From Eledone cirrhosa (taxonomy: Eukaryota): DNA of 64,000 nucleotides. The stretch spans positions 105,276,001-105,340,000 of the forward strand of contig OZ024743.1 in assembly GCA_964016885.1 (NCBI GenBank), given 5' to 3'. This document shows positions 1-59,500 of this stretch, in pieces. Below the pieces are notes generated by a model, which did no database searches, had not been told where the DNA came from, and saw only the letters and a program-made list of their open reading frames with translations. Each line of letters begins with the position of its first letter. The stretch's first letter is position 1. Both the position numbers and the translations under genes were made by a program.

Positions 1-468
1 ACAGATATGCCACCATCCACACCAGCATCACCAACCCCATCAACCCAAACACCAACACCATCACCATCATTATCCCCAGCACCACCATCACCTACACCAC
101 AAAAGTCACCAAAATGCGAAACAGAAACAAACCCACAACAAACGCAAACAAAACAAAACAACCAAAACGATACACACTACACAGCATTAAATTTGAACAA
201 CAAGCAATTATTACACTACATCCAACACAACACCAGCATCACAGAAAAAGACTACACAACAACCCCAAAATTCACACCACCTCCACACATACAAATCACT
301 CGCATCACACAGAAAACGTACATGACACTAAAACAAAAATTCCCCAAAGACATCGGAGACTTCCGACAAGTACTCTCCAGGAGGATTTATAAGGACATCC
401 TTCCTGAGGAGGCCACAAGCAGTGAAAAGGATGGAAAAGCCGTCCTTCCCCTACGAGAAGTAAGGTAA
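1..468 (+). CDS. C-terminal part of LINE ORF1 (Pro/Thr/Gln-rich), 5' end outside the window
   Basis: Open frame to TAA 466-468. The segment ITRITQKTYMTLKQKFPKDIG aligns with MIRVPADTYKSLK*NFPKDVG at the ORF1 end of the copy near 37860-37925. Confidence 0.8.
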   Translation, partial: TDMPPSTPASPTPSTQTPTPSPSLSPAPPSPTPQKSPKCETETNPQQTQTKQNNQNDTHYTALNLNNKQLLHYIQHNTSITEKDYTTTPKFTPPPHIQITRITQKTYMTLKQKFPKDIGDFRQVLSRRIYKDILPEEATSSEKDGKAVLPLREVR

Positions 469-502
469 GTGGTCTTTCCCATCTTTTCCACTCCTTTTCA
501 AC

Positions 503-3500
503 ATGACCTCACTCAGAATAGGCAGCATAAATGCGCGTGGCTTGGAGTCGTCATGGAAGCAGGGCCACCTGCTCAACGACCTCAGGTCACTAAACATAGA
601 TGTAGTGGCCATCAGCGAGACCAGAATCTCCGAAGCACAGGCTTTCGCACCGATCTTCGGCGGCTACGATGTGTACGCATCTCCCAGCCGTCCGGGATCG
701 GGGGGAGGAGTTGCTGTGCTTTTTCGGGGAGGTTTGGATCTTGCCATACGGGCCATCTTCCTGGACCCAGAAGGTAAGTTGGTGGTGCTGGACGTAACCA
801 GCAGAGACGGGCAAGCTTTCAGGTTAGTGGCCGTCTATGCCCCGACAGGAGCAGGGCGGCCTGATTTCTTCCGGCGTCTGGAGACCTTTCTTGGAACGTC
901 CCGCTTTTTAGTGTTAGTGGGCGACTGGAACGGGATCTTAGATGCACGCTGGGATTGTGTGGGATTAGTGGATAGGAAAGGAGGGTGCAAGAGTCTCACC
1001 AACCTGCTCAGACGTTTTGAACTGTCTGACAGGTACCGAATGGATTTCCCGAATGTACCAATGTGGACTTGGACAAATCGCATAGGGTCATCCAGATCAT
1101 ATCTAGATAGAGTATTTTGTAGGGAAATAGATAGGTCTAGCATAGGCTGTCCACAATTCAAGATAGTCAGCTACACGGACCACAAATTCGTGATCTGTGT
1201 GCTTGACTTAGATAGGCTTCATAGACGAGGACCCGGCTACTGGAAGCTAAACGCGTCCTTACCAGCGCGCAAGGCCTACAGAGACCGGATTAGCGAACTA
1301 GTTAAGCGGGCGTTGACGGGGGCCATCGTCAACAACAAGTGGTGGTTTGCTCTGAAAAGAGCAATTAGAATAGAGTCCATTAGGTTTAGTAAGACTTTAG
1401 CAATAGAGAAAAATAGAGCAGAGGAAGAATTAGTTAGAAAATTAGATGAGGCGCTTAGCAAAGGCATCGCGACCGACGTACTTGCGGCGAAATTGGCCCT
1501 TGACCAATTCTTCAATGCAAAGCACGAAGGCTGCGTTGTCAGAGCTAGGGTGCGTGCTCTCAGACACGAGGGGACGAAAGCCGTTCAATGGGCCCGAGTG
1601 GCGGAGGCGCGTCGTGGCAACAAAACCACGATCCGGTCTTTGATGGACCACGACGGGCGCATGCTACTCGATCCCGGGCAAATGTGTGAAGCTTTTCAGC
1701 GACACTTCGCTCAACTTTTCGGGGGCAGTGGCGGGCCGGCTCGAGGGATGGACTTTAGTGTCTACCTCGACGGACTGCCGCGGCTTTCGGCCACTGAGGC
1801 GGAGTGTTGCGAAAAGCCGATAACAACCGCTGAAGTACGGGATGCAATGACTAGTTGCACAAGGGGTAAATCGCCTGGTTTGGATGGTCTGCCCTATGAA
1901 CTTTACGTACAAATGCCAAACTTGTTCGGAGGCCTCTTGGCGGACGTCTACTGCAACTGGCAACAGAACGGGAGAATTCCCAGCTCTGTGAGCCGAGGAG
2001 CGGTGGCGCTGCTGAGAAAGGATCCGAACAAGGGGGATAACATAGATAATTTTAGGCCCATAACTCTGCTAAACACAGAGTTCAAGATTTTGGCCAAGGT
2101 GCTAGCAAAGAGGTTGGCGCTTGTCGTTGGTGGTCTGGTGGGAGAGGCACAGACATGCGCCATTCCCGACAGATCCATCCACGACAACCTCCACCTCATG
2201 CGATACATCGTAGAGAGGGTAGCTAGGGAACCTGGCACGGGTGGGTCTTTGATCAATTTAGATCAGTCGAAAGCCTTCGATAGGGTCGACCATCGTTACC
2301 TAACGGCAGTCCTGAGGGCGGCTGGCTTTGGGCCCGTCTTCAGAGGCTGGATCGCTGCCATGCACAGCGACATCTGCTCTGTAGTGAGAGTGAACGGTCA
2401 CCTTTCGGAACCGTTCAACATCATGCGCTCGGTCCGCCAAGGATGTCCCCTCTCGTCCCTATTGTACGTATTGACTCTCGAGCCATTACTGCACAAACTG
2501 GAGACGTTGAGGGGGGTCCCGCGCGAACTAGGATGCGGAAGATCCGTGTCAGCATATGCGGACGATGTCACCGTAGTGGTGTCGAACGCCAAACACATCG
2601 AGACGATCGGCACTACACTAAGAGAATACGAAGCGGTGACAGGAGCAATGATCAACCAGGAAAAGTCAGTGGGCCTGCAGCTCGGCACCTGGAGAGGCAG
2701 GTCCATGCCGTCCAACAGCGTCGTCGGGCGCTGGACGGACGGACCGGTTAAATTGCTAGGGGTCTGGTTCGGTCCAAACCTCCAGACGGACAACAACTGG
2801 GACGAGGTGACGAGCAGGGTGGCTTCTCTCACCCAGAAATGGGCGGAGAGGAAGCTATCTCTGAAAGGTCGAGCGGAGGTGGCGAATACGTACATCGTAT
2901 CCGTCATCTACTACCGCCTGACCGTCGTACCTTGTCCTAAGCCCCGCCTGACTGCGCTGGAGCGTTTGCTCTTTCGCTTCTTGTGGAGGGGACGCGCTCT
3001 GATGGTCAGGCGGTCCATCTGCTGTCAACACCCGCTACGTGGAGGGCTGGGCATGCCGTGGCTGATGATGCGCAGACACGCGCTCAGGCTACGACATCTC
3101 CACCTCTTCCTCGACGGTGATCAGGTGTGGTCGCCGTTTGCAAGACACGTTTTTCCCCAGCTCGTCTCCTTGACGGAGCTGCAGTCCTGGGTCAAGCGAA
3201 GACCGAGAGGGAGCGCTTGGAGACTGGAATGTCTTCAGGCGCTCACTGCCCTCGACCAATCGGGCAATGTGATCGGTGGAAACTCCACCTTGGCGTTCTA
3301 TAGGGGATTAGTGGAGGGGAAGAGCGACGACGTACTTGGAGAAACTCTAGGCGTTGACGAAAATCAACTAGCCAATCTCTTCGGAAGGACTTTCGGGCCG
3401 GGGCCTATGAACAACTTCCAGAAATCCCTGGCCTGGCAGTGCTACCGAGGAGCTTTGCCAGTTCGGGATAAACTCTACAGGCATGGAGGTGCCGTCACCC

Positions 3501-3922
3501 GGGCATGTCCGAGATGCGCGCAGGGCGACGAAACCGTCCTGCACGCACTCGTCCAGTGTCCGAGCATTGCTGACTTGTGGGTTTATGTCGAACACCTGCT
3601 GTCACGTGTAGGACCTATCCAGCTATCAGCTGAGTCCATCGTGAGGATCGCCCCGCCCCCTTCCTTTAGCCTGGAAGGGCAGGCAGTTTTTATCTGTCTG
3701 GTGGCCATGGCGAAAGAGATAGTATGGTGGACACGTTTGAAAGTGCTGAAGACGAGCACTTACCTCTTCGGTGATGCCCTGATTAACTTTTTCAAATTTC
3801 ATTTGAAAAGGAAAATCAGGGTAGAGAGGGAAGTGCTCTCTTCCCAGCATTTTGTTGAAAGATGGGTGAGAGAAGCAAGTATGGCCCGAATGAATGGGCC
3901 TTCTCTGAGTATGTGTCTGTAA
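503..3922 (+). CDS. LINE ORF2: apurinic-like endonuclease, reverse transcriptase and C-terminal Zn-knuckle (Tx1/L1 type)
   Basis: 1139-aa uninterrupted ORF. APE motifs SINARGL, SET, VYAP, GDWN, YLDR, TDH. RT motifs KSPGLDG, FRPITLLN, DQSKAFDRV, RQGCPLS, YADD, LLGV. C-terminal CPRC..ETVLHALVQC. Confidence 0.97.
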   Translation: MTSLRIGSINARGLESSWKQGHLLNDLRSLNIDVVAISETRISEAQAFAPIFGGYDVYASPSRPGSGGGVAVLFRGGLDLAIRAIFLDPEGKLVVLDVTSRDGQAFRLVAVYAPTGAGRPDFFRRLETFLGTSRFLVLVGDWNGILDARWDCVGLVDRKGGCKSLTNLLRRFELSDRYRMDFPNVPMWTWTNRIGSSRSYLDRVFCREIDRSSIGCPQFKIVSYTDHKFVICVLDLDRLHRRGPGYWKLNASLPARKAYRDRISELVKRALTGAIVNNKWWFALKRAIRIESIRFSKTLAIEKNRAEEELVRKLDEALSKGIATDVLAAKLALDQFFNAKHEGCVVRARVRALRHEGTKAVQWARVAEARRGNKTTIRSLMDHDGRMLLDPGQMCEAFQRHFAQLFGGSGGPARGMDFSVYLDGLPRLSATEAECCEKPITTAEVRDAMTSCTRGKSPGLDGLPYELYVQMPNLFGGLLADVYCNWQQNGRIPSSVSRGAVALLRKDPNKGDNIDNFRPITLLNTEFKILAKVLAKRLALVVGGLVGEAQTCAIPDRSIHDNLHLMRYIVERVAREPGTGGSLINLDQSKAFDRVDHRYLTAVLRAAGFGPVFRGWIAAMHSDICSVVRVNGHLSEPFNIMRSVRQGCPLSSLLYVLTLEPLLHKLETLRGVPRELGCGRSVSAYADDVTVVVSNAKHIETIGTTLREYEAVTGAMINQEKSVGLQLGTWRGRSMPSNSVVGRWTDGPVKLLGVWFGPNLQTDNNWDEVTSRVASLTQKWAERKLSLKGRAEVANTYIVSVIYYRLTVVPCPKPRLTALERLLFRFLWRGRALMVRRSICCQHPLRGGLGMPWLMMRRHALRLRHLHLFLDGDQVWSPFARHVFPQLVSLTELQSWVKRRPRGSAWRLECLQALTALDQSGNVIGGNSTLAFYRGLVEGKSDDVLGETLGVDENQLANLFGRTFGPGPMNNFQKSLAWQCYRGALPVRDKLYRHGGAVTRACPRCAQGDETVLHALVQCPSIADLWVYVEHLLSRVGPIQLSAESIVRIAPPPSFSLEGQAVFICLVAMAKEIVWWTRLKVLKTSTYLFGDALINFFKFHLKRKIRVEREVLSSQHFVERWVREASMARMNGPSLSMCL

Positions 3923-4165
3923 ATTAAAGGTGGAAAACTGGGAGAGGGCACTTGCCCTGGTGGTCAGGGCCACTGTGGTCTTTTAATGGGCTTTCTCCAC
4001 AAATGTCCCTTGGAAGTCTCCCCCCTATTGGGGAATTTTTCTTTGTTATTTTATTTCAACCTCTGTTTTTTTACACGCAGAAATGCCCATTTGTACCGTC
4101 CTGTATTGTCCTGTAATGTCCTTAATGTCTACTTTATGTGAACCCTTGTGGTTAATAAAGAAAAC

Positions 4166-6276: not shown

Positions 6277-6283
6277 TACTTAC

Positions 6284-13454: not shown

Positions 13455-13485
<31 letters not shown>

Positions 13486-13545
13486 TCATGCTACTGTACG
13501 TCTGTATACATATATGTATGTACGTATACATGCATAATTACATAT
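12810..13545. mobile_element. Fold-back HHR-containing non-coding element (same family as the 35136-35960 tandem)
   Basis: Inverted arms ~12885-13145 and 13280-13535. The spacer and HHR match 35338-35490. Confidence 0.85.
13243..13283 (+). ncRNA. Type I hammerhead ribozyme, canonical core
   Basis: cggtg-CTGATGA-t agc taacaa gct t-GAAA-cta-GTA-catcg. 5-bp stem I, palindromic minimal stem III (ACTAGT), predicted cleavage after A13278. Confidence 0.88.
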
Positions 13546-13575
13546 ATATATATATATATTAAAATAACAGATTAA

Positions 13576-13626
13576 AGTTTAAGCAAAGAATCGCTGCTTT
13601 CACCCTTAACGGGATCTTCTGAAACT
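13576..13626 (-). ncRNA. HHR-like motif, U4A core variant (mirror copy)
   Basis: Reverse complement of 17964-18014. Confidence 0.65.
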
Positions 13627-15844: not shown

Positions 15845-16117
15845 GTCGAATGGGGGGTACTATTAGATTTTTTAATCCAAATAGAGTCGTCGAAATTAAT
15901 CACCGATTTACGGGCATTGAGGATGACATCAACTTCGAAATGCTTAACCACTGTGAGTGTTTTAGCGAAATTGATAGCTCTAAGGAGAAGTGGTAAAGTG
16001 ATGGAGGATTAGTAATTATTGATGTCGAATTGGATAAAACAGCAATGTTCCTTGTTACATATGCCGTTGAACCAATCAATCACCGCGAAAGAATTGTTCC
16101 ACAGTGCAAGAGGGGCC

Positions 16118-18124
16118 AACGTTTCTTTGAGGCTTTGCCGTCTATCTACTAACGAGCATATTTTCAACGACCATTCCACATATTACAATGAAGCTCTTGC
16201 TCGTAGTGGATTTGTCGATAATGTAGCATATACAGAGTACGAGAATAGACCTAGAAGAAATAGATCTCGACGCATTATATGGTATAACCCACCATATAAT
16301 ATGGAGGTGGCCACACCATTAGCTAAGATCTTTCTCGCCCTTATTATGAAGCATTTTCCCCCTACACATAAACATAGTAACATTTTTAATAGAAATACTA
16401 TTAAAATTTCTTAATGTACGACTCCTAACCTTGCACATAACATCACAGCTTAAAATTTAGCTAAATTACCTAGCCGTAGGAACACGTGCAACCCTGTAGT
16501 TGGTACTAACTGTAATTGTAGGAATCGGGTTGACTGGCCCCTATCCAGGAAATGCCTCTCTAGTAACATTGTCTACAAATGTAAGGTTAAAACACCCACG
16601 TCCAGTAGGGCCTACATAGAGTTAACCGCCAATAGATTCAAGCAGCGTCTTACATGCATACACATTCTTTTCGTTACCCTTTAAGAAGGAATATGACGTC
16701 ACTTTCAGCTTATATCTGGAGTCTAAAAGACAACCAGACCCAATATAAGTTACACTGGGAGATCCTAGCTAGTGCTAGATCGTATAACGGAAACAAAAGA
16801 CCATGTGACCTCTGCGCCGCTGAGGGCCTGGGAATACTCTACGCCAAAGACCACATCTAAAACAAAAATTCTGAGGCAATTTCTGCTAGTAAACATAAAT
16901 TGCACAAAACTCTCCCGTATTACAGCCCCACATTATACCCTAACGGATACTATGAACTATACGCGGATAATTTACGTCTTGATGTGGTAGCTAAGTATAT
17001 GTTATGTTTATACCATTACTTATTTGTATAGGTAAGTATATATTACCTGTATGTTTTGTGAAGGTACGTATACTTTCTCGTACGTATATTTGATTGTATA
17101 TGTTATGGCGTATATATTATTTTTTCTGGTACATATGCTTTTGGTTATGTGTATACGTGAGTTTTGCGTCTGTGTGAGTATGAGGGTTCGTAGGTATGTA
17201 GGGTGTGTGTATATGTGTACTTCGTGTTTTGGTTGACGTCATCTCCGAACATATGTGATTTTACATGTAGGTTTGTGTGTGCGCTTGTTATATACGTATT
17301 TATTTATTTATATACGTTTATTTGATTATATGTATACACACACATATATATATATATATTTTTTTTTTTAATATATATATTTGTGTATTTGGTGTATACA
17401 TTCGTATGCGTGCGGGTACAGGGGTTGCGTGGATTCTTTATGTGTGTGCGTTTTTTTCTTTTTTTTGTGTTTACGTGCGTGTATTTGTATACCTATGGCG
17501 AGTGTTTTCGCGTATACTTGTGTATGTACGTATATGGATGCGTGTATGTATTTATTTAATTTCATTTACCTCTGTATTTTATTTACTTTATTCTTAACTC
17601 TGAAGCCGAGAATCATTCGGTTTCCTAGTTAGAATTTTAGTCTGTGACTTCAGTTAAACCATTTACGTGATTTTGTCTTTGCGTGCAATTGTTCTCCCCG
17701 CTCCACACATGACGTATTATCTTCGTTTTTTCCGTTCATTGCCAGAGAACGTCTCTATGAACCACCTTCTTTTATTCCATAAACGTGGTTTTGTCTTTGC
17801 GTGTAATTGTTTTTCACCGCTCCAAATAATGACGTATTATATTCGTTTTTTCTCGTTCTTTGCCAGCGAACGTTTCCACGAACCAAAGTATCGTCTTCCT
17901 GTCTTCCTCCGGTTGCAACGTTTTTTGAAATATTCACTTCTGCGTTCACAGATTGCATTTGTTAGTTTCAGAAGATCCCGTTAAGGGTGAAAGCAGCGAT
18001 TCTTTGCTTAAACTTTAATCTGTTATTTTAATAAATATTTGCTCTACGGTTCTTATATATTTTATATATATTTATCCTTATCGAGCCCTCTTTGGATTTT
18101 AGTCTTCAAATTTATTATTATTAC

Positions 18125-18125
<1 letters not shown>
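16118..18125 (+). mobile_element. Penelope-like element, 3' portion (thumb, CxCx5Cx5C linker, GIY-YIG, 3' UTR, pLTR); right half of the inverted structure
   Basis: Mirror of 13559-15481. Reads CNCRNRVD.P..KC, VYKC, FKQRL..H.HSF, TSLSAYIWSLKD, CDLC..E. Ends in (TA)n. Confidence 0.92.
17964..18014 (+). ncRNA. HHR-like motif in a PLE pLTR, U4A core variant
   Basis: agttt-CAGAAGA-t ccc gttaa ggg t-GAAA-gca..tgc-TT-aaact. Confidence 0.7.
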
Positions 18126-18170
<45 letters not shown>

Positions 18171-20276: not shown

Positions 20277-20297
20277 GGTGTGTGTATATCTATCTAT

Positions 20298-21240
20298 CTG
20301 GCATATCGAATGTACTCAAGCGCTCACAGTCCTCTGGCAAACGGACCCGGCGATCAGTGGAGACTCCACTTCGACATTCTATAGAGGGTTGGTCCGCAGC
20401 AAGTGCTACGACACGCTCGGAGAAACTCTAGAGGAGGATGAACTGGCCAGTCTGTTTGGTAGGACCCTCCGCCCGGGACCAATGGACAACTTGCAAAAGT
20501 CCCTGGCCTGGCAGTGCTACCGAGGAGCTCTACCAGTTCGAGACAAGCTCTACAGACACGGGCGCCCGGGTAGGGACCCTTCGAAAAAGATCTATCTGAG
20601 ATGCGTGCGCGACGAGGAAACCGTCGCACACACATTTGTACACTGCTCGGGCGTTACCAACCTGTGGGGCTATGTAGAACGACTATTGTCGCGGGTGGGA
20701 CCAATCCAGTTGACCAGCGAGTCCATTGTCATGATCAAACCGCCACCCTCCTTCAAAAACGAGGGAGAGGCGGTTTTCCTATGTGTTATGGCTATGGTGA
20801 AAGAGGTTATATGGTGGACGAGGTTAAAAGGGCTGAGGTCAGACACCTTTCTCTCCGGCGAGCAACTGATTCGTTTTTTCAAATATCATTTTGGAAGAAG
20901 AATCAGGATGGAGAGAGAGGTCCTATACCCCAGCAAATTTTATAAAAGGTGGGTGAAAGAGGCAATAATGGCCCGAGTATTTGGCCCTCTCTCTATATAA
21001 GCCTGTAGGTTGAGGAAAAAGAGGAAGAGAGGAAGGGAGTACTCACTCTTGGTGCTCCTGGAGATGAGGGTTGTACATTTTTTCGGGGTGTGTACAACCC
21101 CTGTGTAACACCTCCCCCTTATTGTGGATTTCAATTGTTATTTGTTGTTTTATTAATAGTTTTATTTTCATATACCTGTATGTAAACTCCCCATTTGTAT
21201 TTGTACCCTTCTTTTGTGCCTTTGTGGCTAATAAAGAAAT
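20298..21240 (+). mobile_element. 5'-truncated Tx1-like LINE (ORF2 C-terminus plus 3' UTR), copy 2
   Basis: QKSLAWQCYRGALPVRDKLYRH and ETVAH..HC. 3' UTR has hairpins and AATAAAGAAA. Flanked by TATC/TCTC repeats. Confidence 0.92.
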
Positions 21241-22222
21241 TTATCTCTCTCTCTCTATATATAAATAAGTTCTACATACATGCACAGATAAACATCAGTA
21301 CTCATTCATTTACGACCCCGAATATATAAATAAACTATATAGACTGTATAGACCACGTGTAATGTCGCGGCAAGTTTTAAGTATCATCGATTGTAAACTA
21401 CGAAGAAATAGACATTGATGAATTTATCATTATGGTACTTCTATTCGGTAAATCAGTTTGAGTTATTGGAATGAAAATATAAAGAAAAAAGGAAATGAAA
21501 TGATCACATAACTAAGGTATAGAGGTATTGAAGTGGTGATGCATATGATTAAACCCGCTGTTTGAGTTTTATTGTGCATTCACAATGCTTTCACACACAC
21601 ATAGAGAAACAGTCTTTAATGAATGAACATCTCTTTTAAGTGCACTTCTACTCAACAATATTATACTTGTGAATTATCTGAACTGGGTCACATATAACAA
21701 AATATTGACCAGCTTAGACACGGTGATTTTACAACGGATTTACACTTACAAATTCTCGCTACTTTCACTGCTACATTGATTGAAATAATTCCGTTGAAAT
21801 GTACAAAACTAACACATTTACTTTACATTCATTTAGATTTAACAAAGACAATAACATAAGTCAATGACTGACCTTCACTAATTCTGATGGTGGTTTCTGA
21901 AGTAGCGCTAGAAGCAAGTGAAAATGACGTGTAACTCGAAATACAATTAATTGATAAAAGGTCCATGAAGCTGTCGATTCATTACAGTGTGCATCATTAC
22001 CTGGCATATATAATGATTATATATATATATACTAGCAGTTTAGCCCGGCGTTGCTCGGGTTTGTTCATTTGCTATGAAAAGTTACATACAGGTAAACGTT
22101 GTTTGAAAGCGAATAAGCTTATCAATTAAGTGCATAAAGCAGTTGAACCGGTTATTAAAAGTTACGAACCAATTAGCATTTTGGTCAATCAATGATGGGT
22201 TAATAATCTTCCAATAGCGAAT

Positions 22223-24055
22223 TTAGTAGACCGGGAATTGTGATCGCCGGAAATCGAACGGGATATCTGACGCCGAGGGGAAAAGGTTCATCCTTGGAAT
22301 GAAAACATACTCCCCTCTTCCACACCCCGTTACAATGGTGGCCTCAATCAGGTGGGTGTCAGTGACTTGACGACCATGCGAGTACCGTTGCACTGCTTTG
22401 GTGGACGCAAGTTCCTTATTAGCATAATGACAGCCAACCCTAAGCTTAATAATGTGAGGTGGGAGCCCTGGGAGCTCAAGGAGATTTAATAACTCAACCG
22501 GATAATTAACGATATCGTCGGGGTCTGATTTGAAGATGTGCTCTTTACCGGGAATCTTCTCAATCAGCTGCTCGTTAATAAGATTAACCATGGTATTTTT
22601 CGGAGCAAGGATGGCTCTTTCGCTGAGCCAATCGAGGTTTTTAAAGTTAGATGAGACATTAGGAAAAACTGCTTCCCAAAGGTCCGAAGGGCTGCTCACA
22701 ATGTTGCACAGGGTGTCGATTGCTATGCCGCCCTTGTCATCCGCAGGGATCTTGCCCTCACCAAGTGCTAAAATGTTCTGTGCTGCAGACATGTTGTCAG
22801 CATGCAAATGAGCACGCATATTTGTGCTCAGGTACAAACTATTCACCTGGAGCCACAACATGGACGACTTAAGAGAGGCACGCACTTCATCAGCTCTTGT
22901 CCATTTGGGGATGACAGGCAGCGTTTTCCGAAAATCCCCTGATAGCAGAAGGGTTACGCCACCGATAGGAGCCGTAGAATCCCTAATGTCTTTCCGGGCC
23001 TCGTCCAATGCCTCAAGGGCACCCTTGTGTGCCATTGTGCACTCATCCCAAACAATGAGGCAACATCTTTTGAGAACCAGAGCTTTGTGTGAACTCTTGC
23101 TGATATTGCATGTTGGTGTCTCAGTTTTTACTAAATCCAAAGGGAGTTTAAAGGTTGAATGTGCTGTCCTGCCTCCCGGCAGCAAAGTAGCAGCGATCCC
23201 GGACGATGCAACGGACAACGCAACTTTTTTCTCCTGACGAATCTTAGCGAGAATCAAATTCGTTACAAAAGTTTTTCCGGTACCCCCAGGATCGTTTTTT
23301 ATTGGGGGGATCAGGTTTTTTTGGGGGGACCTTGAGGTATAACCAGTCAGTAGTTCCTTCAAAGGCTCTGGCGGTTCCGTAAGAGGGGGCAAGGTGACCT
23401 TACCGTTTAAGCAGCACATTGCAGGTGGCTCCCCAGCCCACTTTGTAGCATTGCAGATTTGGCAATTGAAGCGTATCTCGCCTATATTTATGTCAGAGCG
23501 CATCGAGTAATTAACGTTTTGCTCATACTTGAAAGCCCGTAGGTGCCAGTAAGGGCTGTTGGGGCTCGTCACACAGCGTGCAGCTTCTCGCCGTCGACTG
23601 TTACGCTTGAACGTAGAACATTGGTCGTGTGGTTGGTGGGAAGGTCTGGCAGCAATAGCAGAAGCAACATTTGCAATGCTAATGGACCGCCCGTCTGCAT
23701 CTTCAGAAGCCATGGAAGTAATCATAGCCGCAGCGTTCGTAGGAAGGCGAGCCGTCCGTTGTTTTAAACGTTCCAAAGACCTGGAAGCAGCATTAGTCGC
23801 ATCGTTTCTAACCAGGTGCTTCGACCTTTGTTCACGGCTTTCTGAAGCCCTGGAAGAAGCCTGGTATGAAGCCATTTTGGCTAGGCGTGCGGTGCGCTGT
23901 TGGAAACTTTCAGTGGCTCGACATTCTGCTGAACATAAGGCTGTCTGTGAAAGTCTTGAAGCATTTTCCTCAGAGGACTCGTTTGCTATAGTAGCCTTTT
24001 GCGCCACTGCTGACGCGGTATGTCGACTGAGGCGACTTCTCTTTTTAGGTGGCAT
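22223..24055 (-). CDS. Truncated RepHel: N-terminal helical repeats and Zn-finger fused in frame to a PIF1-like helicase; Rep/HUH domain missing
   Basis: MPPKKRS start; C..C.A.KW.GE...CC..GK zinc finger; PGGTGKTF, SSGIAATLL.GGRTAHS, WDE, GDFR, LSTNMR, RAILAP, LPPH. Frameshifted near the C-terminus. Confidence 0.85.
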   Translation of the reverse strand: MPPKKRSRLSRHTASAVAQKATIANESSEENASRLSQTALCSAECRATESFQQRTARLAKMASYQASSRASESREQRSKHLVRNDATNAASRSLERLKQRTARLPTNAAAMITSMASEDADGRSISIANVASAIAARPSHQPHDQCSTFKRNSRRREAARCVTSPNSPYWHLRAFKYEQNVNYSMRSDINIGEIRFNCQICNATKWAGEPPAMCCLNGKVTLPPLTEPPEPLKELLTGYTSRSPQKNLIPPIKNDPGGTGKTFVTNLILAKIRQEKKVALSVASSGIAATLLPGGRTAHSTFKLPLDLVKTETPTCNISKSSHKALVLKRCCLIVWDECTMAHKGALEALDEARKDIRDSTAPIGGVTLLLSGDFRKTLPVIPKWTRADEVRASLKSSMLWLQVNSLYLSTNMRAHLHADNMSAAQNILALGEGKIPADDKGGIAIDTLCNIVSSPSDLWEAVFPNVSSNFKNLDWLSERAILAPKNTMVNLINEQLIEKIPGKEHIFKSDPDDIVNYPVELLNLLELPGLPPHIIKLRVGCHYANKELASTKAVQRYSHGRQVTDTHLIEATIVTGCGRGEYVFIPRMNLFPSASDIPFDFRRSQFPVY

Positions 24056-24059
24056 TTTA

Positions 24060-24500
24060 TGTCCAAAAGAAAGGTTGAAAGTTACTTCTACAGAAAAATT
24101 GACTTTGAAAGTCTACTGTCTGTTTATGAATATTGTTATTGTTGTTGTGATACAAATGTTATTTATTAAATGGGTATCGAAAAATAAAGGGTGAAAGTTA
24201 CTTCAACATAAAAATTGACTTTGAAAGTATAAGGCTGATAATTGAATGTAAAAAGATTGATAAGAAAGGCCCACCAAAAAAATTTACAGGTATTTGTATG
24301 TATGTGTGTATTTTTATGTCGAAAAGAAAGAGTTAAAGTTACTTCTACAGAAAAATTTAGTTTGAAAGTGTAAGGCCGATGTGTGTGTAAATTAAGTGAC
24401 AGGTATTTGTATGTATGTGTGTCTATGTATGTATGTGTGTATGGAAGTGTAAGGCCGATGTGTGTGTACATTAAGTGACAGGTATTTGTATGTATGTGTG

Positions 24501-31312: not shown

Positions 31313-31664
31313 TATTAAGTTAGAATTTTAAGAATTTAAAAACTGAATAAACAGTGGGCATATTCGTTTAAAAAAAAAACCCTAAATAGGAATTGAAAAG
31401 GGTATCCATATTGCATGTTTATATGGATAATAAGTATAACTGTCCTTGATCTCTTGTTGGGGAAATTATGTATTAATGTTAAAATAACAACAAACGTAAA
31501 ATAGGCAAAGATCCATGAAAGATAGGAATACAAATAATATAAATTAAAAACATTGCAAAACGTAGCCTCCCCCTCCTCCGAAAAAGGAAGAAAGAAACAT
31601 TAGCCATGAAAATGATTGTTGAAGACCAGTATACGACAATGACAAGCATATGCCAATAAAAATA

Positions 31665-31845
31665 TTATTGTTTCTACTTTTGACACAAGGCCAGCAATTA
31701 CCCCAGTACATTATTGGTACTTTATTTTATCGACCACGTAAGGATGAAAGGCAAAGTTAACCTCGGCGGGATTTGAACTCAGAACGTAAAGGTACGTAAC
31801 TATGTTAAAAAGCATGGCATTCGACCCTCTACCGATACTGCCAAA
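31665..31845 (-). mobile_element. Octopod-type SINE, subtype B
   Basis: Reverse complement of 6284-6470. Confidence 0.88.
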
Positions 31846-35992: not shown

Positions 35993-36237
35993 TATCTATC
36001 TACCTATCTATCTATTTATCTATCTATCTGTTTTACTTGAGAGTGTGCCAGTTCGCTGGTAAGTTTTTAATGATTTTCTAAGTAAGAAATCAAAAATTTA
36101 TTGTTAAATTTGATACTATTTTATAGCTTGACCCCACGTCTGGACTTTCAAGTCATCTTCACCCCTCCGTGGGGTGACATTTTCGTTTGAAAAAATTTCG
36201 TCGGTGAAAAAATTGTAAACAAATTTTGCATTCAGTC

Positions 36238-36426
36238 ATGGACGCTGCGTTCAGTACGAGAAGTGGTGGAGAGGCGGTAAGAGTGTTAAGCTCGCAGTCA
36301 CCTCCTCTCACCACCCCATTGAAAGACATCGAAAATGTCGACAGTTTTGAAAACACGTTGTCGGACGTTGATTGTAACATCAACACTAACACAAAGACCA
36401 ATAACATGCAAGATATAAATAACACT

Positions 36427-36501
<75 letters not shown>

Positions 36502-38122
36502 AATGACAGCAAGAACAACAACAGCAACGATGATAACAACACCACAACGAACAACAACACGAACAACTCCACGAACAAGGAAAAGATTTCCTTTGCTCAA
36601 ACCGTCCAAAAGACGGAACTGTTCACATAACTTGACATTTCCAATGCTAGGGAAATGTTAAGCGGTGCAAAACAGTAAGTAACTTTTGGTGAGAGTGGTG
36701 CTTTCAGCATCACTTCTAAACAGTTACGCAGAGAAACTGTTCTAAAAACAGTAATGTTTAGGACGGTTTCAAATGTGTCGAAAAAACCAGTTCAATTATC
36801 CCAAAACGATATTGAACTGTTTCTGAAGAATTCCATGAAGGATATTGCCTTCATCCAAAAAGGGAAACTTTTTGGAAGCATTTCGGTGTTGTTAAAAGAC
36901 TAATTGACGACACAAAAATATTCTGTATCGTCGATTGTGTCCCCTTTTACACCTTTTTCCCCACATATATGGGAAAAAGGACACAAAAGATAAAAATTTC
37001 GAACATTGCACCAAATATAAACTCTGGGGGATTTTAACTGGCTTCATCGATTATGACGAAGACACCATCATTTCGGTGGGAAAGTCCCCCAGAGGCACAT
37101 TCAATGGTACAATCATGGAAGTTTTGGTACAAATGAGGCCAGAAAGGATAGCTAAAATACCCCAACGTGTGCCTCTGGATGGAATTTCACACATAAACAT
37201 TTCTGTTGAGGGTAGGCGGCCTTTCTGTTACCACTGTTTAAGCAGTGGTCACCTGAAGGCTTACTGTCCTCAGTTAACTACAAAAAAAGAGGCACTACTG
37301 CCAACACCCAAAACAACAACACAACCACCACCACCACAACAACACCAACAACACGCAAACATAACCAAAACAGGAACAACAAACCAACCTGCAAGCACAG
37401 TGCCACCCAACCCCACTCTACCTAAAATCACTGCAAAATGACCCACAAACACAACAGCTCCCCAAAACATACACCTTCAAAATAACACAGACACGACATC
37501 GGACGAGGCCCCCTCATCATCATCACCAAGTGACGATGAGGGAGAGCCTCTCCGTTCGAAAAGAAAGAAAAAAAGACACCACAAGAACAAAAAAACAACA
37601 AACATCACTACAAACATACAACCACCAACACAAACAACACAAACATTACAAACAAACTCCCCCCGCCCCGAAAGCAAAACCACGACATCACTCCAAACAC
37701 AAACACCTACAACAAAACGAAAGTTCCCACAGGAACAACAAACAAAAACCACCGCAACACAGCAAGAACAATACACATACATAAACAGTAAAATCAAAAC
37801 TTTAATGCAGGACATTTCCAACGACCATTTTTCGAACTGTGTAGACAAACCTAATTTAAAGATGATTAGGGTCCCTGCGGACACCTATAAGTCTTTAAAG
37901 TAAAACTTTCCTAAGGACGTGGGTAATCCTTGTGTTAAACCCATTAACCGCGTCCTTTTAAAAAGTTTCCCCACCCTCACCCCAGACACATCCACACCAG
38001 ACAGCCCCTCCCCACCAAACATCTCCGTCCACACCCCGCTGGAAACCACCACCCACCCAGACAACCCCTCTAACACTCCCATGGAAATCGGGCGGCCTGA
38101 TCCCTGGGAGACGAAGAGGTGA
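36238..38122 (+). pseudogene. LINE ORF1 (poly-Asn tract, CCHC knuckle, Thr/Pro-rich tail), disrupted
   Basis: ATG at 36238, (AAC)n, SFAQTV, CYHCLSSGHLKAYC, FPKDVG. Several stops and frameshifts. Confidence 0.85.
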
Positions 38123-38162
38123 GTTTTTTCTTCTCCTCTTCTTTTAACTTTTCAGAAACAAC

Positions 38163-41100
38163 ATGGCCAATATAAGAGTTGGATGTGTGAATGTACGCGG
38201 CCTGGGGATGTCTTGGAAACAGGGCAAACTCTTAAACGATCTCTGGTCGCACATTATGGATGTAGTAGCTATTTGCGAGTCCCGGATCCACAGCGAGCGA
38301 CAGCTGGCCCCCATCTTCGATGACTTTGAGATCTACGCATCTCTCTGTCAACCGGGGTGTGGGGGCGGGGTTGCTGTTTGCTGCGGAAACACCTGGGCCT
38401 GGAAACACAGGCGCTACATCTGGACCCGGAGGGTCGACTGGTGGTCCTAGACGTTAACGGTAGTGAAGGTGGAGCCTTCAGGCTTGTGGCCGCATTGCCC
38501 CATCCGGGACACCGCGGCCAGACTTCTTCAAACGTCTAGAGACTTTTCTGGGAAGGTCCCAATCCTTACTTTTAGTGGGGGACTGGAATGGAATCCAAGA
38601 TGCACGTTGGGACTAGGTGGGAGCATGTCCCGATAAAGGGGGTGTAACAGCCTCAAACAGTTAATCGGCCGATTTGACCTGGCCGATAGATATCAACTAG
38701 ATTTTCCGACTGTGCCACTGTGGACGTAGACTAATCGTAACGGAACATCTAGTTCGTACCTAGATAGGGTTCTACTTAGAAATAAGGATAGGGACATGTT
38801 AAGCTGTCCACAAATGTTCATGAGCCTATTCAGATCACAAGCATGGTCAACCTTGACAGAACACATAGACAAGGACCCGGCTACTGGAAGCTGAACTTGT
38901 CGTTACCGACAAGCAAAGCCTACAGTAGACGGATTAGCACTTTAGTTAAACAGCACTTGACAGGGGCCATTGTCAACAACAGATGGTGGTACTCTCTCAA
39001 GATGGCAGTTAGATTAGACTCGTTAGTTTTTAGTAAAGAATTAGCGTTAGTTAGAAATAGGACCGAGAAGGAACTGGTAGATAAAGTAGAAGAGGCAATT
39101 AGAAGTGGCAACGTAGCCAGCGTGCTAGCAACGAGAACGGCATTGGACCAGTTCTTCGACGCAAAGTACGAGGGCTGCGTTGTCAGAAGCAAAATACGTG
39201 CTCTGGGAAACGAGGGAACCAAAGCTGTTAGCTGGGCCCAAGTGACGGAGGAAAAAAGTGGCAACAAGTATACGATTCGGTCTTTGAAGGACTAAGACGG
39301 ACGCGGGATACGTGAGCCGAAGCAGATGTGTGCGGCCTTTCAGCGGCACTAGGCTCAACGCCGGTAGGGGCTGTGGATATCGGTCCACACCTCGAAGGCC
39401 AACCGCGACCCTCGGACAGCGAGGCGAATTTCTGCGAAAAGCCGATTTCAACCGCTGAGATAGGGTCTCGACGGTCTACCCTACGAATTTTACGTAGCAA
39501 TGCCGGACTTATTCTCCGGTCTCCTAGAAGCTTCTACTGCAACTGGCAGCCTAACGGGAGAATTCCCAGTTCTGTGACCGGGGGCGTAGTCATACTAGTC
39601 AGGAAGGACGAGAATAAGAGGGATGGCATAGGCAACTTCCGGCCCATAACTCTGCTAAACACAGAGTTACAGATTTTGGCCAAGGCGTTGGCAAAGAGGC
39701 TGGCGCTTGTCGTCGAGAACCTGGTGGGAGAAGCGCAGACATGCGCAATCCCGACCAGGTCCATACACGACAACCTCCACTTCAGGCGATACATCATAGA
39801 GAGGGTAGGGTGTAAACCCGGCTTAGGTGGGGCCCTGATCAACTTGGATCAGTCTAAGGCTTTCGATAGGGTTGACCATCGTTACCTGGATGCGGTGCTC
39901 GAGGCGGCAGGCTTCGGACCCGTGTTCAGGGGCTGGATTGCTGCAACGCACAACAGCAACATCAGCTCATGGGTCAAGGTGAACGGTTACCTTTCGGAGC
40001 CATTCCATATCACGCGATCCATTCGACAGGGATGCCCTCTCTCCTCCCTTCTGTACGTACTGACTCTCGAGCCACTACAGCGGAAGTTGGAGCTATTGCA
40101 AGGCATCCGTTTGGAACCGGGACTGCGGAAAACGGCGTTGTCCCACGCCGACGACGTGACAGTAATGGTGTGGAATACCTCGCAAATCGAGGAAGTCGGC
40201 ACTTTACTGAAGGAATACGAAAGGTTCACAGGAGCGAAGCTGAACCGGGAAAAGTCCATCGGTTTACAACTCGGATCGTGAAGAGGCAAACCGATGCCTT
40301 CAGATGGCCTCATCGGACGCTGGACGCAAGGACTGGTAAAGCTGCTCGGAGTCTGGTTTGGTCCGGACCTCCAGGTGGAGAAGAATTGGAACGAGGTGAC
40401 GGCCAAGGTGTTTGCACTCACCCAGAAGTGGGCCGAGTGCAAACTATCTTTGAAAGGTCGAGCGGAGGTGGCGAACACTTTTATAGCGTCCGCCATCTAC
40501 TACCACTTGACCGTCGTGCCTTGTCCAGCCAAAGCGTTCACCAAAATGGAGCGCGCGCTCTTCCAATTTCTCTGGAAGAGGCGGGCTCCTTTGGTGAGAA
40601 GATCCATCTGCTGCCAACACACTTCCAACGGAGGGCTGGGGTAGCCGTGGCTGACGATGCGCAAACACGCGCTCAGGCTGCGGCGTCGCTACGTATTCCT
40701 CACCGGACAACCGGTGTGGGCCCCGTTCGTGAGGCGAGCCTTTGCACGACTCGTCTCGCTGACCGAGCTACAGTCCTGGGTCAAGCAGAGACCGAGGAAA
40801 ATGGGCGACTGGCACATCGAATCTGCTCAGGCGCTCACAGCCCTCTGGCAGGCGGACCCGGCGATCAGTGGAGACTCCAATTCGTCATTCTATAGAGGGT
40901 TGATCCGCAGCAAGTGGGACGACGCGCTCGGTGAAACTCTAGGCGTAGAGGAAGACGAACCGATGGACAACTTCCAAAAGTCCCTGGCCTGGCAGTGCTA
41001 CCGAGGAGCTCTACCAGTTCGAGACGAGCTCTACAGACATGGGCGCCCGGGCAGGGACCCTTCGAAAAAGATCTTTCCGAGGTGCGTGCGAGACGAAGAA

Positions 41101-41168
41101 ACCGTCGCGCACGCATTCATACACTGCCCGGGTGTTACCGACCTGTGGGGCTATGTAGAACGACTATT
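38163..41168 (+). pseudogene. LINE ORF2 (APE-RT), disrupted
   Basis: CVNVRGL, GPGYWKLN, FRPITLLN, DQSKAFDRV, RQGCPLS, HADD. Multiple stops and frameshifts. Confidence 0.93.
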
Positions 41169-41192
41169 TTTAAATTGCATTAATATATTATT

Positions 41193-45399: not shown

Positions 45400-45862
45400 G
45401 GGAGGGGGAACTGCCGGTTTAAAATAAACTCTACAGGGAAGGAAATGCTTTCAGACGGACACCTGTCTGAGATGCGGGCAGAGTGACGAAACCGTTGTAC
45501 ACGCTTTTGTGCAGTTATGACGACATAACTGCACATTGTCGCGTGAAAGACAGTTCCGGCTATAGAGTGAGGCCATAGTGAAGATCACCACTCCGCCTTC
45601 CTTTGGCCAGGAAGGGCAGGTAGATTTCCTGTCTGGTGACTGTAACATAAGAGGTTGTGAGGTAGACCAGATTGAGAGGACTGAAGACAGTCATTTTTCT
45701 CTGCGGTCAATCCCTCATTGACTTTTTCAAGTTTCACTTGGCATGGAAGGTGAGGGTGCAGACAGAAGTGCTGCCACCACCAGAGCATTTGCTAAAGGTT
45801 GGTGAATGTGGCGAGAATGACCCTTGTGAATGGGCCTATTCTGAGCAGGCATCTGTAGACTG
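45400..45862 (+). pseudogene. Old Tx1-like ORF2 C-terminal fragment
   Basis: KLYR..CLRCGQSDETVVHAFVQ and LIDFFKFHL. Confidence 0.75.
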
Positions 45863-45867
45863 GTTAG

Positions 45868-46140
45868 TCTTCCGGATTGATCCTTACTCCCGTCAAATTT
45901 TCGTATTTCCCTAAGAAGTTGCCGGACTCCTTCATTTATGAAGTGTTCGACACCATCACAGTGACGTCGTCCGCATATGACGATGCGGCCCTTCCACCTC
46001 CCGGTTCAAAGAAGATAACCTACATCAGCTCCAGCTTCCGTAGTAGTGGCTCGAGAATCAGTATATAGAGAAGGGAGGAGATAGGTTATCCTTGACGGAC
46101 CAGGCGCGAGATCTAGAACGGTTCCGATTGATGACCATTT
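45868..46140 (-). pseudogene. Old Tx1-like RT fragment, tail-to-tail with the previous feature
   Basis: Minus strand VRQG.P.SSLLY.L.LEPLLRKLE and SYADDVTV. Confidence 0.8.
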
Positions 46141-46217
46141 ACTTTAACCAAATGGTAGTAGTAGTAGTAGTAGACGTAGACGTAGTAGAAGCTGCAGCAG
46201 CAGCATTATTAGTAGTA

Positions 46218-46635
46218 TGGATTGGCAGTATCGGTAGAGGGTCGGACGCCATGCTTTCCAGCATAGTTACGTCCCTTTACGATCTGAGTTCAAATCCCGC
46301 CGAGGTTGACTTTGCCTTTCATCCTTACGGGGTCGATAAAATAAAGTACCAGTAATGTACTGGTTAATTGCTGGCCTTGTGCCTAAAGTAGAAACAATTA
46401 TTAGTAGTAGTAAGGGGCGGTCGATTGGCAGAATCAGTAGAGGGTCGGACGCCATGCTTTGCAGCTTAGAGTTACGGCCCTTTATGATCTGAGTTCAAAT
46501 CCCGCCGGGGTTAACTTTGCCTTTCATCCTTACGGATAAAAAAGAAAAAGTACCAGTCACATACTGGAGTCGATTTAATCGACTTTCCTCTCCCCCCAAA
46601 TTGCTGGCCTTGTTCTTATATAAGAAACCATTATT
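46218..46635 (+). mobile_element. Tandem SINE pair (subtype B then A) in (TAG)n
   Basis: Two copies of the B-box and core, at 46218-46400 and 46414-46635. Confidence 0.9.
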
Positions 46636-47699
46636 AGTAGTAGTAACAGCAGCAGCATCAACACTAGTAGTAGTATGAATAGTAGTAGTAGTAGTAGTAG
46701 TAGTAGCAACAGCAGCTGTAGTAGTAGTAGTAGTAACAGTGATATTATTTGTCTACAATTTCTACTATCATCTTTGCGTTATTTTATCTTATTTTCCTTT
46801 TTTTATTTTATCGTATTCCTAATATCTTTCCTTGTTTTTTTTTTGTGATTGTAGTTTCTGATTATCAATATATTATTATTATTATTATTATAATTGTTTT
46901 TGTCATGTTAAATTTTCATCTCGCCATATTGTTGTTGTGTATTAATTATATTTTGGAAACAAATGAATTTAATGCGACAATAATTAATTTACTACATCTG
47001 TATCTGTTTCTCTTTATCATCACTAACATTTGTGGAATTCTCAGAGAATTTCGTTTTGGTTTTGTTTATGCTGTAGTTGCTATTGTGATTTTCGAAATTT
47101 ATTTTCTTGTTGCTGTTTATAATTCTTGTTTATTTTCTCGTTCTTGCTAGTTGTTTTTAAATGTATGTATCTCTTTCTGGTGTTCTTATTGTAATATCTA
47201 ATATAGTTGCTTTTTTGTTGTTAATTCTTTACATTGTTGTTGTCCAAAAATATGCGAAGATTCTTTACAGCGTTGGTGATGTATTAACAAAATATGGAAT
47301 ATGGATTATAGATATAAAATGGTAGTAACATTGGTATTGGTGTTTCATCTCATGGGGAATTTTATGGAATGCAAATGTTCAAATTGATGCGGGAGAAACG
47401 CTGATGTTGAATGTAATGACGTAATAATGAAATATGTGATTTTTGATAACATTTTTTAAATGGTGACAACAACGCAACGTTGTTTTCGTTGTTGTTGTAT
47501 GTTGGTCTTTGTTGGAAAATGCCTGTTTTAAGTGGGGAAATGATGATTGCTGTTGAGGAATAGTTACAATAGTATAGGTAATGCATGTTGTTGATTAGAT
47601 ACACATCAGCTCCCATTGACAAATATAGTTGTGATTCGATTCATATACGCAGTGGTTTATGATTGGAGTTTGTTCTGATTTTGTACAGGGCGTGATTTG

Positions 47700-53749: not shown

Positions 53750-53975
53750 TAATATTGGTTTCTGATTTAGAAAAAATGCCAATAATTTTGGGGGAGGGGA
53801 AAGTCAATTAAATCGAATCCAGTACATGACTACTACTTTATTTTATCGACCCCGTAAGGACGAAAGGCAAAGTTAACCTCGACAGGATTTTGAACTGAGT
53901 TACGAAAGGGGCATAACCGTATGCCATAAAACATGATGTCCGACGTTTGTCCGATACTGCCAATCCACCGCCCTT
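53750..53975 (-). mobile_element. Octopod-type SINE, subtype A
   Basis: Reverse complement of the 6079 family. Confidence 0.85.
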
Positions 53976-56049: not shown

Positions 56050-56240
56050 AATAATTGTTTCTGTATTTGGCACAAGGCCAGCAATTATCTCTGTGCATTA
56101 CTGGTACTTTATTTTATCGACCCTATAAGGATGAAATCAAAGTTATCCTCGGCGGGATTTGAACTCAGACCATAAAGGGTCGTAATTCTTTGCTGCAAAG
56201 CATGGCGTCCGACCCCCTACCGTTACTGCCAATCCACCGT
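56050..56240 (-). mobile_element. Octopod-type SINE
   Basis: Reverse complement of the family consensus. Confidence 0.85.
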
Positions 56241-56605
56241 AGGTGTGAAATAATGATCTTTACCGCAATCAAAACTGTGCTTAATTTACACGGTGCCACA
56301 CTGAACTAACATTCCCTGAGCAGATCTTCAGAGAGCGCTCTACCTAGAACTGATTATCTTCTCAGGTCATATGGGAACTGGTTTGGCGTATGCAGACCAC
56401 GCGGAGGAGTTTTTCAGAAGAAGCGTTCTGAATATTAGGAAATGGTAGAGCTGGACAGAGACCGTGGTTTGTGGGTCAACTGCGAACACAATCAAATGGG
56501 CTGTCAATTTTTTGCTTAACCTCAAGCGTAATCTTCTTATTGGTTTGTAGTTCTGATTGTTGAGGTTGTTGTTGCTGGTGTTGTTGTTGTTGTTGTTGTT
56601 TTTGT

Positions 56606-57467: not shown

Positions 57468-57582
57468 GGTAAATATTGATACAATTCAATTCAAGCACTC
57501 AACGTACTTTTTCCACATAGGAGTGACGGAGTAAATATCGAATAAGGAAAAGCGAAGTAGTTTAAGATGTTCAAGTCCTTTA

Positions 57583-57765
57583 ATAATAATTGTTTCTACT
57601 TTAGGCACAAGGCCAGCAATTACCCAGTACATTACTGGTACTTTATTTCATCCACCCCGTAAGGATGAAAGGCAAAGTTAACATCGGCGGGATTTGAACT
57701 CAGACTGTAAAGGGACGTAACTATGCTAGAAAGCATGGCGTCCAACCCTCTACCGATACTGCCAA
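57583..57765 (-). mobile_element. Octopod-type SINE, subtype B, nested in the palindrome arm
   Basis: Reverse complement of 6284-6470. Confidence 0.9.
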
Positions 57766-57840
57766 ATGATGTGTTATATTTCAATGACGACACTGGCCAC
57801 ACTGTTCTGTGTGCGATTGTCGTGACATCATCAGTAACAA

Positions 57841-59002: not shown

Positions 59003-59500
59003 TCAATCCGGAGCTTTGTAGTTATGTAAGAGGTGTTTCGAGACGTGTGGACAACGTGTGAAGAATTCATTCCTCGTGTTTAGGCAATCACTATTGCATA
59101 ATCTCTTTAGAATATTTATTCGTTCATCAATACATAGTCCACACGACGGATTGCCCCTTGCGTATCGCTTGGACTTAGTGATGGCTTTCGATTGAATGCA
59201 GTAGTCTATACTTGAGTCCTTGAGGGACCATACGTGGCTCGCGAGTTTCGTGGATGAACGTCTGTCCAGGTACCTAAAGGTCGACTGGTGTTTCAGGAAG
59301 CGTTCCTTAAATCGGCTCTCCGCCATATCCACATAGGATTTGACCTCCTGTGGTTGATTTGGTCGGTTGGAAGTGACCACAGCTTCATAAACTACAGCGG
59401 GTGTGTTGCATTGCTGTTGAAGGGGACAAGCTTCGGGCTTACGGCAAGAGCACGCTGGTGGGGTGTTGCTCTTAGGGCTGTTGGTGATGTTGGCCTTCAA
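59003..59500 (-). pseudogene. PLE GIY-YIG endonuclease domain with CxCx5Cx5C linker
   Basis: 165-aa frame carrying the motifs listed for the element. Confidence 0.88.

Follow-up and report, generated by a model that had tools for sequence, protein, structure and literature searches.

Why should a near-perfect 5′ splice donor sit on the very stop codon that closes the first reading frame of a retrotransposon? The question is posed by a stretch of Eledone cirrhosa DNA (assembly GCA_964016885.1, contig OZ024743.1, positions 105,276,001 to 105,340,000 of the forward strand; 64,000 nucleotides (nt), the whole of which we call the window), whose + strand carries two long copies of one type of long interspersed nuclear element (LINE), copy 1 (1–4160) and copy 2, with 69.5% nucleotide identity between their second open reading frames (ORF2). 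In both copies the first open reading frame (ORF1) ends with an AGG codon, followed by the stop and then by GT, and the base-composition chance of a final AGG together with GT after the stop is about 0.001 per element. The sequence-only reading of this locus took the donor for the start of a very short intron fusing ORF1 to ORF2 and supposed that selection acts on the splice signal. Our comparisons support the view that the donor-like motif has been under selection, conserved over the long term at the end of ORF1 regardless of phase or of any local acceptor. We propose, with a probability of roughly 0.4, that it is a 5′ splice site recognized by U1 that would join ORF1 to a distal acceptor, and not to the AG found 37 nt away.

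In copy 2 the motif GAG/GTGAGT (38116..38124, + strand; the slash marks the prospective exon end) has its GT at 38119–38120, overlaps the stop TGA (38120–38122) and matches the complement of U1 at eight of nine positions. Copy 1 has AAG/GTAAGT (GT at 465–466) over the stop TAA (466–468), within a 14-nt donor block (459..472, + strand) that is identical to positions 3985–3998 of L001, a member of a sister family. The positions, intron lengths and frames originally given for the copy 2 junction all proved correct when the sequence was read again.

The possibility that the subfamily consensus lacks these signals, which would make them mutations of a single copy, is not borne out by Logan contigs of the four runs X1, X4, X5 and X6 (three coded organisms, three studies, library type not on record), which were compared with 37960–38460 at 80% likeness. 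Among the 40 of 208 contig variants listed, a sample in which the absence of a variant is not proof of identity, no variant fell at 38106–38124, 38154–38155 or 38175–38176 in any of the four runs. Neighboring bases, by contrast, depart from the window in most of the sequencing depth: 38125 in 87% (X1) and 100% (X4), 38156 in 90% and 86%, and 38158 in 99.8% and 88%, respectively. The donor and both downstream AGs therefore look family-wide and not copy-specific, while the window bases at 38125, 38156 and 38158 appear to be private to copy 2. The family majority after the first AG would read Ser-Thr-Asn-Met rather than the Arg-Asn-Asn-Met of the window copy, with the frame unchanged. In addition, the donor is retained across three stop variants, TAA in copy 1, TGA in copy 2 and TAG in two X6 contigs.

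The donor is also common to a family from which the window LINE is deeply separated. In a tree of 102 reverse transcriptase (RT) sequences, both window copies join L034, P0133 and a tandem-array family (L001, L007, L024) with local support of 1.0; the ORF2 of this sister family is 41% identical to that of the window LINE. In 62 of 62 of its ORF1 tails (64 loci, one assembly), the ORF1 stop is followed by G/GTAAGT, with the ORF2 ATG 13 nt after the GT and neither a pyrimidine tract nor an AG between donor and ATG. Because the stop lies upstream of the donor, the ATG follows within 13 nt and no AG intervenes, an intron fusing the two frames is impossible in this family. The 14 bases identical between copy 1 and L001 have been kept although four-fold degenerate sites are saturated (64 of 225 agree); their chance identity is 0.284^14, or about 2e-8 as a plain product. 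Thus, the proposal of selection on the splice signal stands for the donor-like motif, which is family-wide, survives three stop variants and is common to a saturated sister family, whereas the acceptors offer weaker evidence.

A survey of the ORF1–ORF2 junction in 99 elements, 47 of which could be read at both the ORF1 stop and the ORF2 start (43 after duplicate removal), found a donor matching at eight of nine positions within −3 to +9 of the ORF1 stop in both window copies, L001 and L091. Two of the 41 other L1/Tx1 families thus carry a near-perfect donor at this place, against 0.13 expected (P 0.008). The elements compared included 59 loci from a scan of the Genome Taxonomy Database (GTDB), where LINE DNA of hosts has been binned into bacterial assemblies, and the best 80 of 480 loci from a metagenome scan. 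The same overlapping donor in L091 may have arisen by chance, since L091 is distant and six close relatives that were scored (L049, L051, L053, L061, L065, L080) are without it.

If the donor is real, what would it be joined to? We propose that U1 binds the motif at the end of ORF1 and that the donor would be used with a distant acceptor, either in the element's own 3′ untranslated region (UTR) or in a host exon. Splicing of this kind would remove ORF2 and leave an ORF1-only RNA with its junction at or beside the stop, while the unspliced RNA would remain the template for copying and would yield ORF2 by re-initiation at the ORF2 ATG, across a spacer that is short and rich in U/C. The acceptor-like TTTTCAG at the end of this spacer (38149..38155, + strand, 7 nt 5′ of the ORF2 ATG) may serve an upstream donor and so give an ORF2-only RNA; the short distance between it and the donor would keep these two local sites from pairing. 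The outcome would be a ratio of ORF1 to ORF2 set by splicing, as with the short GAG RNA of Ty1/copia elements.

Several observations favor such a distal partner. Any use of the donor in the sister family deletes the start of ORF2 and keeps the ORF1 stop. The ORF2 start of copy 2, CAAC ATG (38159..38165, + strand; ATG at 38163), has the same four-base context as that of copy 1 (ATG at 503), and ATG and context have been kept in both although the copy 1 ATG falls inside the proposed local intron. Record 25 of X6 (542 letters at a depth of 115) runs along the ORF1 tail from 37960 before it ends in 31 letters absent from the window; a simple likelihood puts the break at 38115–38118 with a weight of 0.7–0.9 (about 0.3 for a break exactly at the donor), and the ORF1 frame reaches a stop after one codon past the break. 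Copy 1 possesses a candidate distal partner of its own, an acceptor-like site in the 3′ UTR (4036..4080, + strand, score 15) located 5′ of the AATAAA at 4154, and splicing in silico to the end of this site at 4080 gives ORF1 plus 19 residues, followed by the AATAAA. The sister clade points the same way, with a donor after the ORF2 stop and a strong 3′ UTR acceptor in all six representatives, and splicing of this kind has precedents in Ty1/copia and human L1 (PMC5580714, PMC2896524).

Other facts weigh against a distal partner. Among the contig joints listed, none leads from the donor to a defined acceptor. L034, of the same clade, has no junction donor (score 5). Record 25 is a single contig of unrecorded library type, and the same picture would result from a genomic rearrangement; with ten partly aligned X6 contigs, we estimate a rough chance of about 0.1 that one would break within 3 nt of the donor. 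The 3′ UTR acceptor of copy 1 is an ordinary one, in that 20 of 49 UTRs score at least 15, and neither copy 1 nor the related 3′ fragment at 20290 has a donor after the ORF2 stop. Since donor and stop overlap in octopus-type copies, splicing removes the stop and the following exon must supply another. A local intron would account equally well for the constant ends and length of the spacer, and an in-frame AG occurs in every subfamily seen. Finally, the conserved donor of human L1 owes its retention to a transcription-factor site, and splicing from it is harmful (PMC5860796).

The last point leads to a rather doubtful alternative, a role for the motif without splicing, in which U1 binding would shield the full-length RNA from early cleavage, or the motif would be a termination/re-initiation or DNA-binding element resembling a donor. 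There are precedents for each, as U1 blocks early termination in EVD (PMC5580714), termination–re-initiation has been described for SART1 and L1 (PMC5972666), and the human L1 donor sits in a RUNX3 site (PMC5860796). The sister-family block provides stops in two frames, and behind it comes a TGATG stop-start that is invariant in 15 of 15 contexts; the copy 1 block provides TAA in both frames, and ORF1 and ORF2 of L050, L058, L059 and L092 overlap in a TAATG stop-start, as in SART1. Copy 2, however, retains the donor pattern and not the double stop, and the changes seen in the stop (TAA, TGA, TAG) all use donor-compatible letters. There are also few poly(A) signals to shield, none in 36031–41170 and three in 1–4200. 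A hairpin that might hide the donor finds no favor in the predicted RNA, which showed no special fold relative to shuffled sequences (z −0.3, +0.4 and −0.6; tract shuffles 176/1000 and 352/1000).

We think it rather unlikely, as the sequence-only reading would have it, that the donor opens an intron of 37–58 nt, mostly retained and spliced in a minority of transcripts, whose removal would take away the ORF1 stop and create an ORF1–ORF2 fusion protein. The stretch 38119–38155 does have the features of a GT-AG intron, namely donor, pyrimidine tract and YAG. Its AG, ending at 38155 and preceded by 18 pyrimidines in 20, gives a 37-nt intron in frame with the phase-2 donor and the ORF2 ATG, and a second AG (38175..38176, + strand), within an Arg codon of the first endonuclease strand, gives a 58-nt intron, also in frame; a third at 38177–38178 is out of frame. 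In copy 1 the first usable AG after the donor ends at 516 and yields a 52-nt in-frame intron, the first six letters of TTTTCAG being present at the same distance as in copy 2 without the final G.

The frame of these acceptors is less telling than it seems. A donor read as G/TRR over a stop is always in phase 2, and the acceptor offered by any AGR Arg codon has that phase too, so the second AG is in frame automatically and carries no information; its context here is poor (7 pyrimidines in 20), and of 29 close homologs, 16 carry Arg and 7 carry Lys at its position. For the first AG, being in frame is a one-in-three chance event. Neither of the two acceptors is present throughout the octopus-type subfamilies. 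Each subfamily seen, those beyond the window copies coming from the 24 of 481 loose contig ends listed, nevertheless has at least one in-frame AG: only the second in copy 1, both in copy 2, the same first AG 39 nt from a TAG-overlapping donor in a third subfamily (X6 record 27), and, in an X5 form represented by four contigs, an AG one base 5′ of the ATG where the second-AG position codes for Lys.

The architecture of the spacer argues for a local intron. The earlier description of spacer and ORF1 tail as unalignable with copy 1 is right only in part, since the ORF1 tails have a common block (30% identity) and the spacers are collinear for 36 nt, after which that of copy 1 is 6 nt shorter. Because of the ORF1-tail block and of collinear spacers with both ends kept, the two copies do not represent independent origins of the signal. 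The distance of 36 nt between donor and TTTTCA block is the same in both, and the 3′ end of the spacer is identical at seven of seven positions, while the U/C-rich middle (38125..38148, + strand) varies between subfamilies and agrees at only 6 of 23 positions, below the four-fold identity of 176/305 (P 0.002). Conservation of ends and length (37–39 nt) around a free middle is what is expected of an intron of fixed length, and flatworm introns near 32 nt exist (PMC4040987); a literature search turned up no octopus values. Furthermore, at the protein level, three decayed homologs that lack Arg at position 5 (P0036, P0126 and P0105) carry this residue 1–2 positions ahead of where Met stands, whereas a fourth, P0039, does not.

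Against this stand the sister family, in which the same donor could not serve such an intron, and the retention of an ATG in CAAC context in both copies. A pyrimidine-rich run 5′ of the ORF2 ATG is generic, occurring in 17 of 36 spacers, 14 of them donor-less. The single branch-like A lies 8–9 nt from the AG and 27–28 nt from the donor, which is tight by animal standards. Should ORF2 act in cis, as in human L1 (PMC5860796), intron-less copies would be expected to take over, and yet X1 records 2 and 4 span the junction with the spacer retained. No joint from 38118 to 38156 or 38177 was found among the 15 of 58 joints listed, nor any gap of 37 or 58 bases among nine rows of left-out letters (threshold 4 in 100), although contigs drop rare forms, so that absence is not shown. 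No ORF1–ORF2 fusion protein emerged from searches with ORF1 tails, which are weak searches. In one of 150 representatives, P0036, an upstream frame runs into the endonuclease; its resemblance to ORF1 tails falls short of significance (295 and 261 of 2000 shuffles), and its final 12 residues are equally readable as unspliced spacer. Weighing these points, we regard an ORF1–ORF2 fusion as less likely than a distal partner or a role without splicing.

A +1 frameshift or read-through into ORF2, which lies in the +1 frame relative to ORF1 in both copies, was rejected because an in-frame TAA within the spacer (38145–38147) closes this route in copy 2. Evasion of HUSH was likewise set aside, as the protection depends on intron sequence and not on splice sites (PMC8770142). 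Chance combined with shared ancestry, by which a basic ORF1 end, a stop and a U-rich spacer would produce a functionless look-alike, is quite improbable, for although many ORF1 proteins end in Lys or Arg before TAA and L091 indicates that the motif can arise alone, the 14 identical bases across saturated silent sites, the excess in the survey and the passage through three stop variants speak against it.

A broader picture, which we offer tentatively and hold to be somewhat doubtful as a whole, is that of an animal LINE lineage organized like a small intron-bearing gene, with donors in the leader, at the ORF1 stop and after ORF2; the octopus branch would have either a 37-nt mini-intron fusion, comparable to Gag-Pol, or a switch between ORF1-only and ORF2-only RNAs, and only unspliced RNA would be copied. 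In the sister clade, all six representatives have a second donor 14–40 nt after the ORF2 stop together with a strong acceptor 180–280 nt into the 3′ UTR, whereas among 43 other 3′ UTRs a donor after the ORF2 stop occurs in one and a strong acceptor in five. Donor-like sites are present in sister-clade leaders. Upstream of copy 2 ORF1 there is an intron-like stretch of 68 nt (36056..36126, + strand; GT at 36059, AG ending at 36126), which may be a leader intron or flanking DNA. Precisely spliced copies were found in none of 62 ORF1 tails, 61 readable ORF2 ends or the 40 of 72 candidates scored in the assembly G001, in a set of loci picked by ORF2, from which ORF1-only copies could be missing.

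The sister arrays have features worth recording in their own right. Binned into the bacterial assembly G001 are head-to-tail arrays of an intact 6.4–6.8 kb LINE (L001–L045, L140–L203), at least 60 copies on 17 contigs, in several subfamilies whose leaders differ and whose ORFs are common, with two poly(A) signals per unit. At L001:7486–7537 and equivalent places, a second mini-intron-like unit consists of the donor located 14 nt past the ORF2 stop (61 of 61 readable ends), a pyrimidine run that varies in length and, 36–57 nt on, a near-fixed AG block; a stronger acceptor lies about 250 nt further. Among distant relatives, L091 (5010–5150), L061, L049, L051, L053, L055, L057 and L080 are inserted at the very start of U1 small nuclear RNA genes, with the first gene bases duplicated on both sides. 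A link between the donor and this targeting was rejected, as L091 has both whereas L049, L051, L053, L061 and L080 target U1 genes without having the donor.

Known elements offer partial parallels. In Ty1/copia elements (EVD, BARE1) a conserved U1 site directs a short GAG-only RNA and shields the full-length RNA (PMC5580714). The likeness lies in a conserved U1 site that stands close to where the structural gene ends and is kept in full-length RNA, with splicing that gives a structural-protein-only RNA. As described there, however, the Ty1/copia element has long terminal repeats (LTRs), one ORF, an intron over the protease region and coupled early polyadenylation, whereas the window element is non-LTR, has two ORFs and carries its donor on, or in the sister family after, the genomic stop, with splicing that is predicted. 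Not being an LTR element, the window LINE does not belong to the short-GAG class; what it has of that class is the conserved donor, and an early stop would fit one X6 contig and the in silico copy 1 product. Human L1 has a mostly unused, conserved donor with distal partners. This donor lies in the 5′ UTR, within the RUNX3 site, and the spliced copies (SpIREs) amount to about 2% and are dead ends (PMC5860796). An ORF2-only RNA (SpORF2) arises by a splice from 97 to 1837, the acceptor preceding ORF2 (PMC2896524). Unlike the donor considered here, that of L1 is not at the ORF1 stop, and these accounts, as far as they go, describe no ORF1–ORF2 fusion. In the re-initiation of SART1 and L1 (PMC5972666, PMC5381506), translation of ORF2 likewise begins at the AUG of that frame, in an RNA that carries both ORFs and has short or T-rich spacers; the spacers of vertebrate L1 are variable and T-rich in fish, and the portion of that account concerned with them reports no splice signal (PMC5381506). 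We found no account of a Tx1 donor placed at the ORF1 stop, or of an ORF1–ORF2 fusion made by splicing, in the open-licence literature, Repbase reports being outside this search.

The assignment of the element itself follows from its domains. Copy 1 comprises an ORF1 tail (1..468, + strand), open from the window edge, and an intact ORF2 of 1139 amino acids (503..3922, + strand) in which the Pfam domains Exo_endo_phos, RVT_1 and zf-RVT, as in the L1 group, all score above cut-off. Human L1 ORF2p is its best solved relative (E 2e-53, as against 1e-21 for R2). The layout is also that of the L1 group, with a separate upstream ORF1, spacers of 34 and 40 nt and the AATAAA at 4154 in copy 1, which ends in simple repeats. 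ORF1 of copy 2 (36238..38122, + strand) is decayed by several stops and frameshifts; it has an Asn-rich start, a CX2CX4HX4C zinc knuckle and an end of AGG (Arg) and TGA. ORF2 of copy 2 (38163..41169, + strand), with endonuclease and reverse transcriptase, is decayed and cut off at its 3′ end. The zinc-knuckle region of copy 2 matches ORF1 of L001 (E 2e-7), in which zf-CCHC exceeds the Pfam cut-off. A CCHC zinc knuckle in ORF1 is a trait of the Tx1 clade. On the grounds of domain layout, ORF1 zinc knuckle and octopus annotation, both copies probably belong to Tx1, a label to be read beside an RT tree of 102 sequences that contains no named Tx1 reference.

Tx1 elements often insert target-specifically, in repeats or small-RNA genes (PMC4640811). 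In Octopus vulgaris, 13 recently active L1-Tx1 families with 421 insertions have been reported (PMC13282606), which, like the window LINE, have two ORFs, an APE endonuclease, an RT and a C-terminal zinc motif; the relevant portion of that account mentions neither introns nor ORF1, and its octopus repeat library could contain the consensus of the window family. The closest named homolog of the window LINE is a gene model of Octopus bimaculoides (P0123, XP_014773926.1). This kinesin-like model closes with an Asn-rich stretch fused to the initial 70 endonuclease residues of this LINE and may be a chimeric model or transcript; it has no significant match to ORF1. Octopus-type LINE DNA was found in none of the viral, metagenome or genome collections searched, no clade members beyond those in the tree came to light, and the ESM Atlas returned generic endonuclease–RT clusters only, with no taxa.

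The remainder of the window is AT-rich animal DNA with microsatellites and with Penelope-like and Helitron-like remnants. Two further 3′ pieces belong to the same LINE group, one at 20290–21250, with UTR and AATAAA and 83% like copy 2, and one at 45405–45860, adjoined by an inverted RT piece (45870–46151, − strand). A 629-codon frame at 22223–24112 (− strand) encodes a PIF1-like helicase with STPR repeats and is Helitron-like. Remnants of Penelope-like RT and GIY-YIG, identified by eye from the translation, lie at 15146–16118 and 59003–60065 (− strand), the first flanked by a 2-kb inverted repeat (13440–15481 with 16118–18167) of 91% identity. A dispersed repeat of about 185 nt, like a short interspersed nuclear element or a miniature inverted-repeat transposable element, occurs in at least six places (6097–6473, 31657–31845, 46218–46646, 53750–53974, 56050–56257, 57581–57766) that are 84–97% alike. 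An Rfam scan of the window found nothing.

Outside mammals it is an open question how the RNAs of two-ORF LINEs make ORF2 and how ORF1 comes to exceed it so greatly (PMC5381506, PMC5972666). Our analysis points to a real, selected signal in an otherwise ordinary-looking LINE, while an ORF1–ORF2 fusion is no more than a candidate outcome. A splice donor fixed at the ORF1 stop in distant families offers one site to mutate and one junction to seek. Were distal acceptors its partners, each insertion would bring a ready donor for chimeric host transcripts into a genome where L1-Tx1 has recently been active. If the mini-intron were true, it would provide a LINE fusion protein made by splicing together with an unusually short animal intron. 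The reading of the lineage as an intron-bearing LINE, if true, would be a new answer to the question of how LINEs express ORF2.

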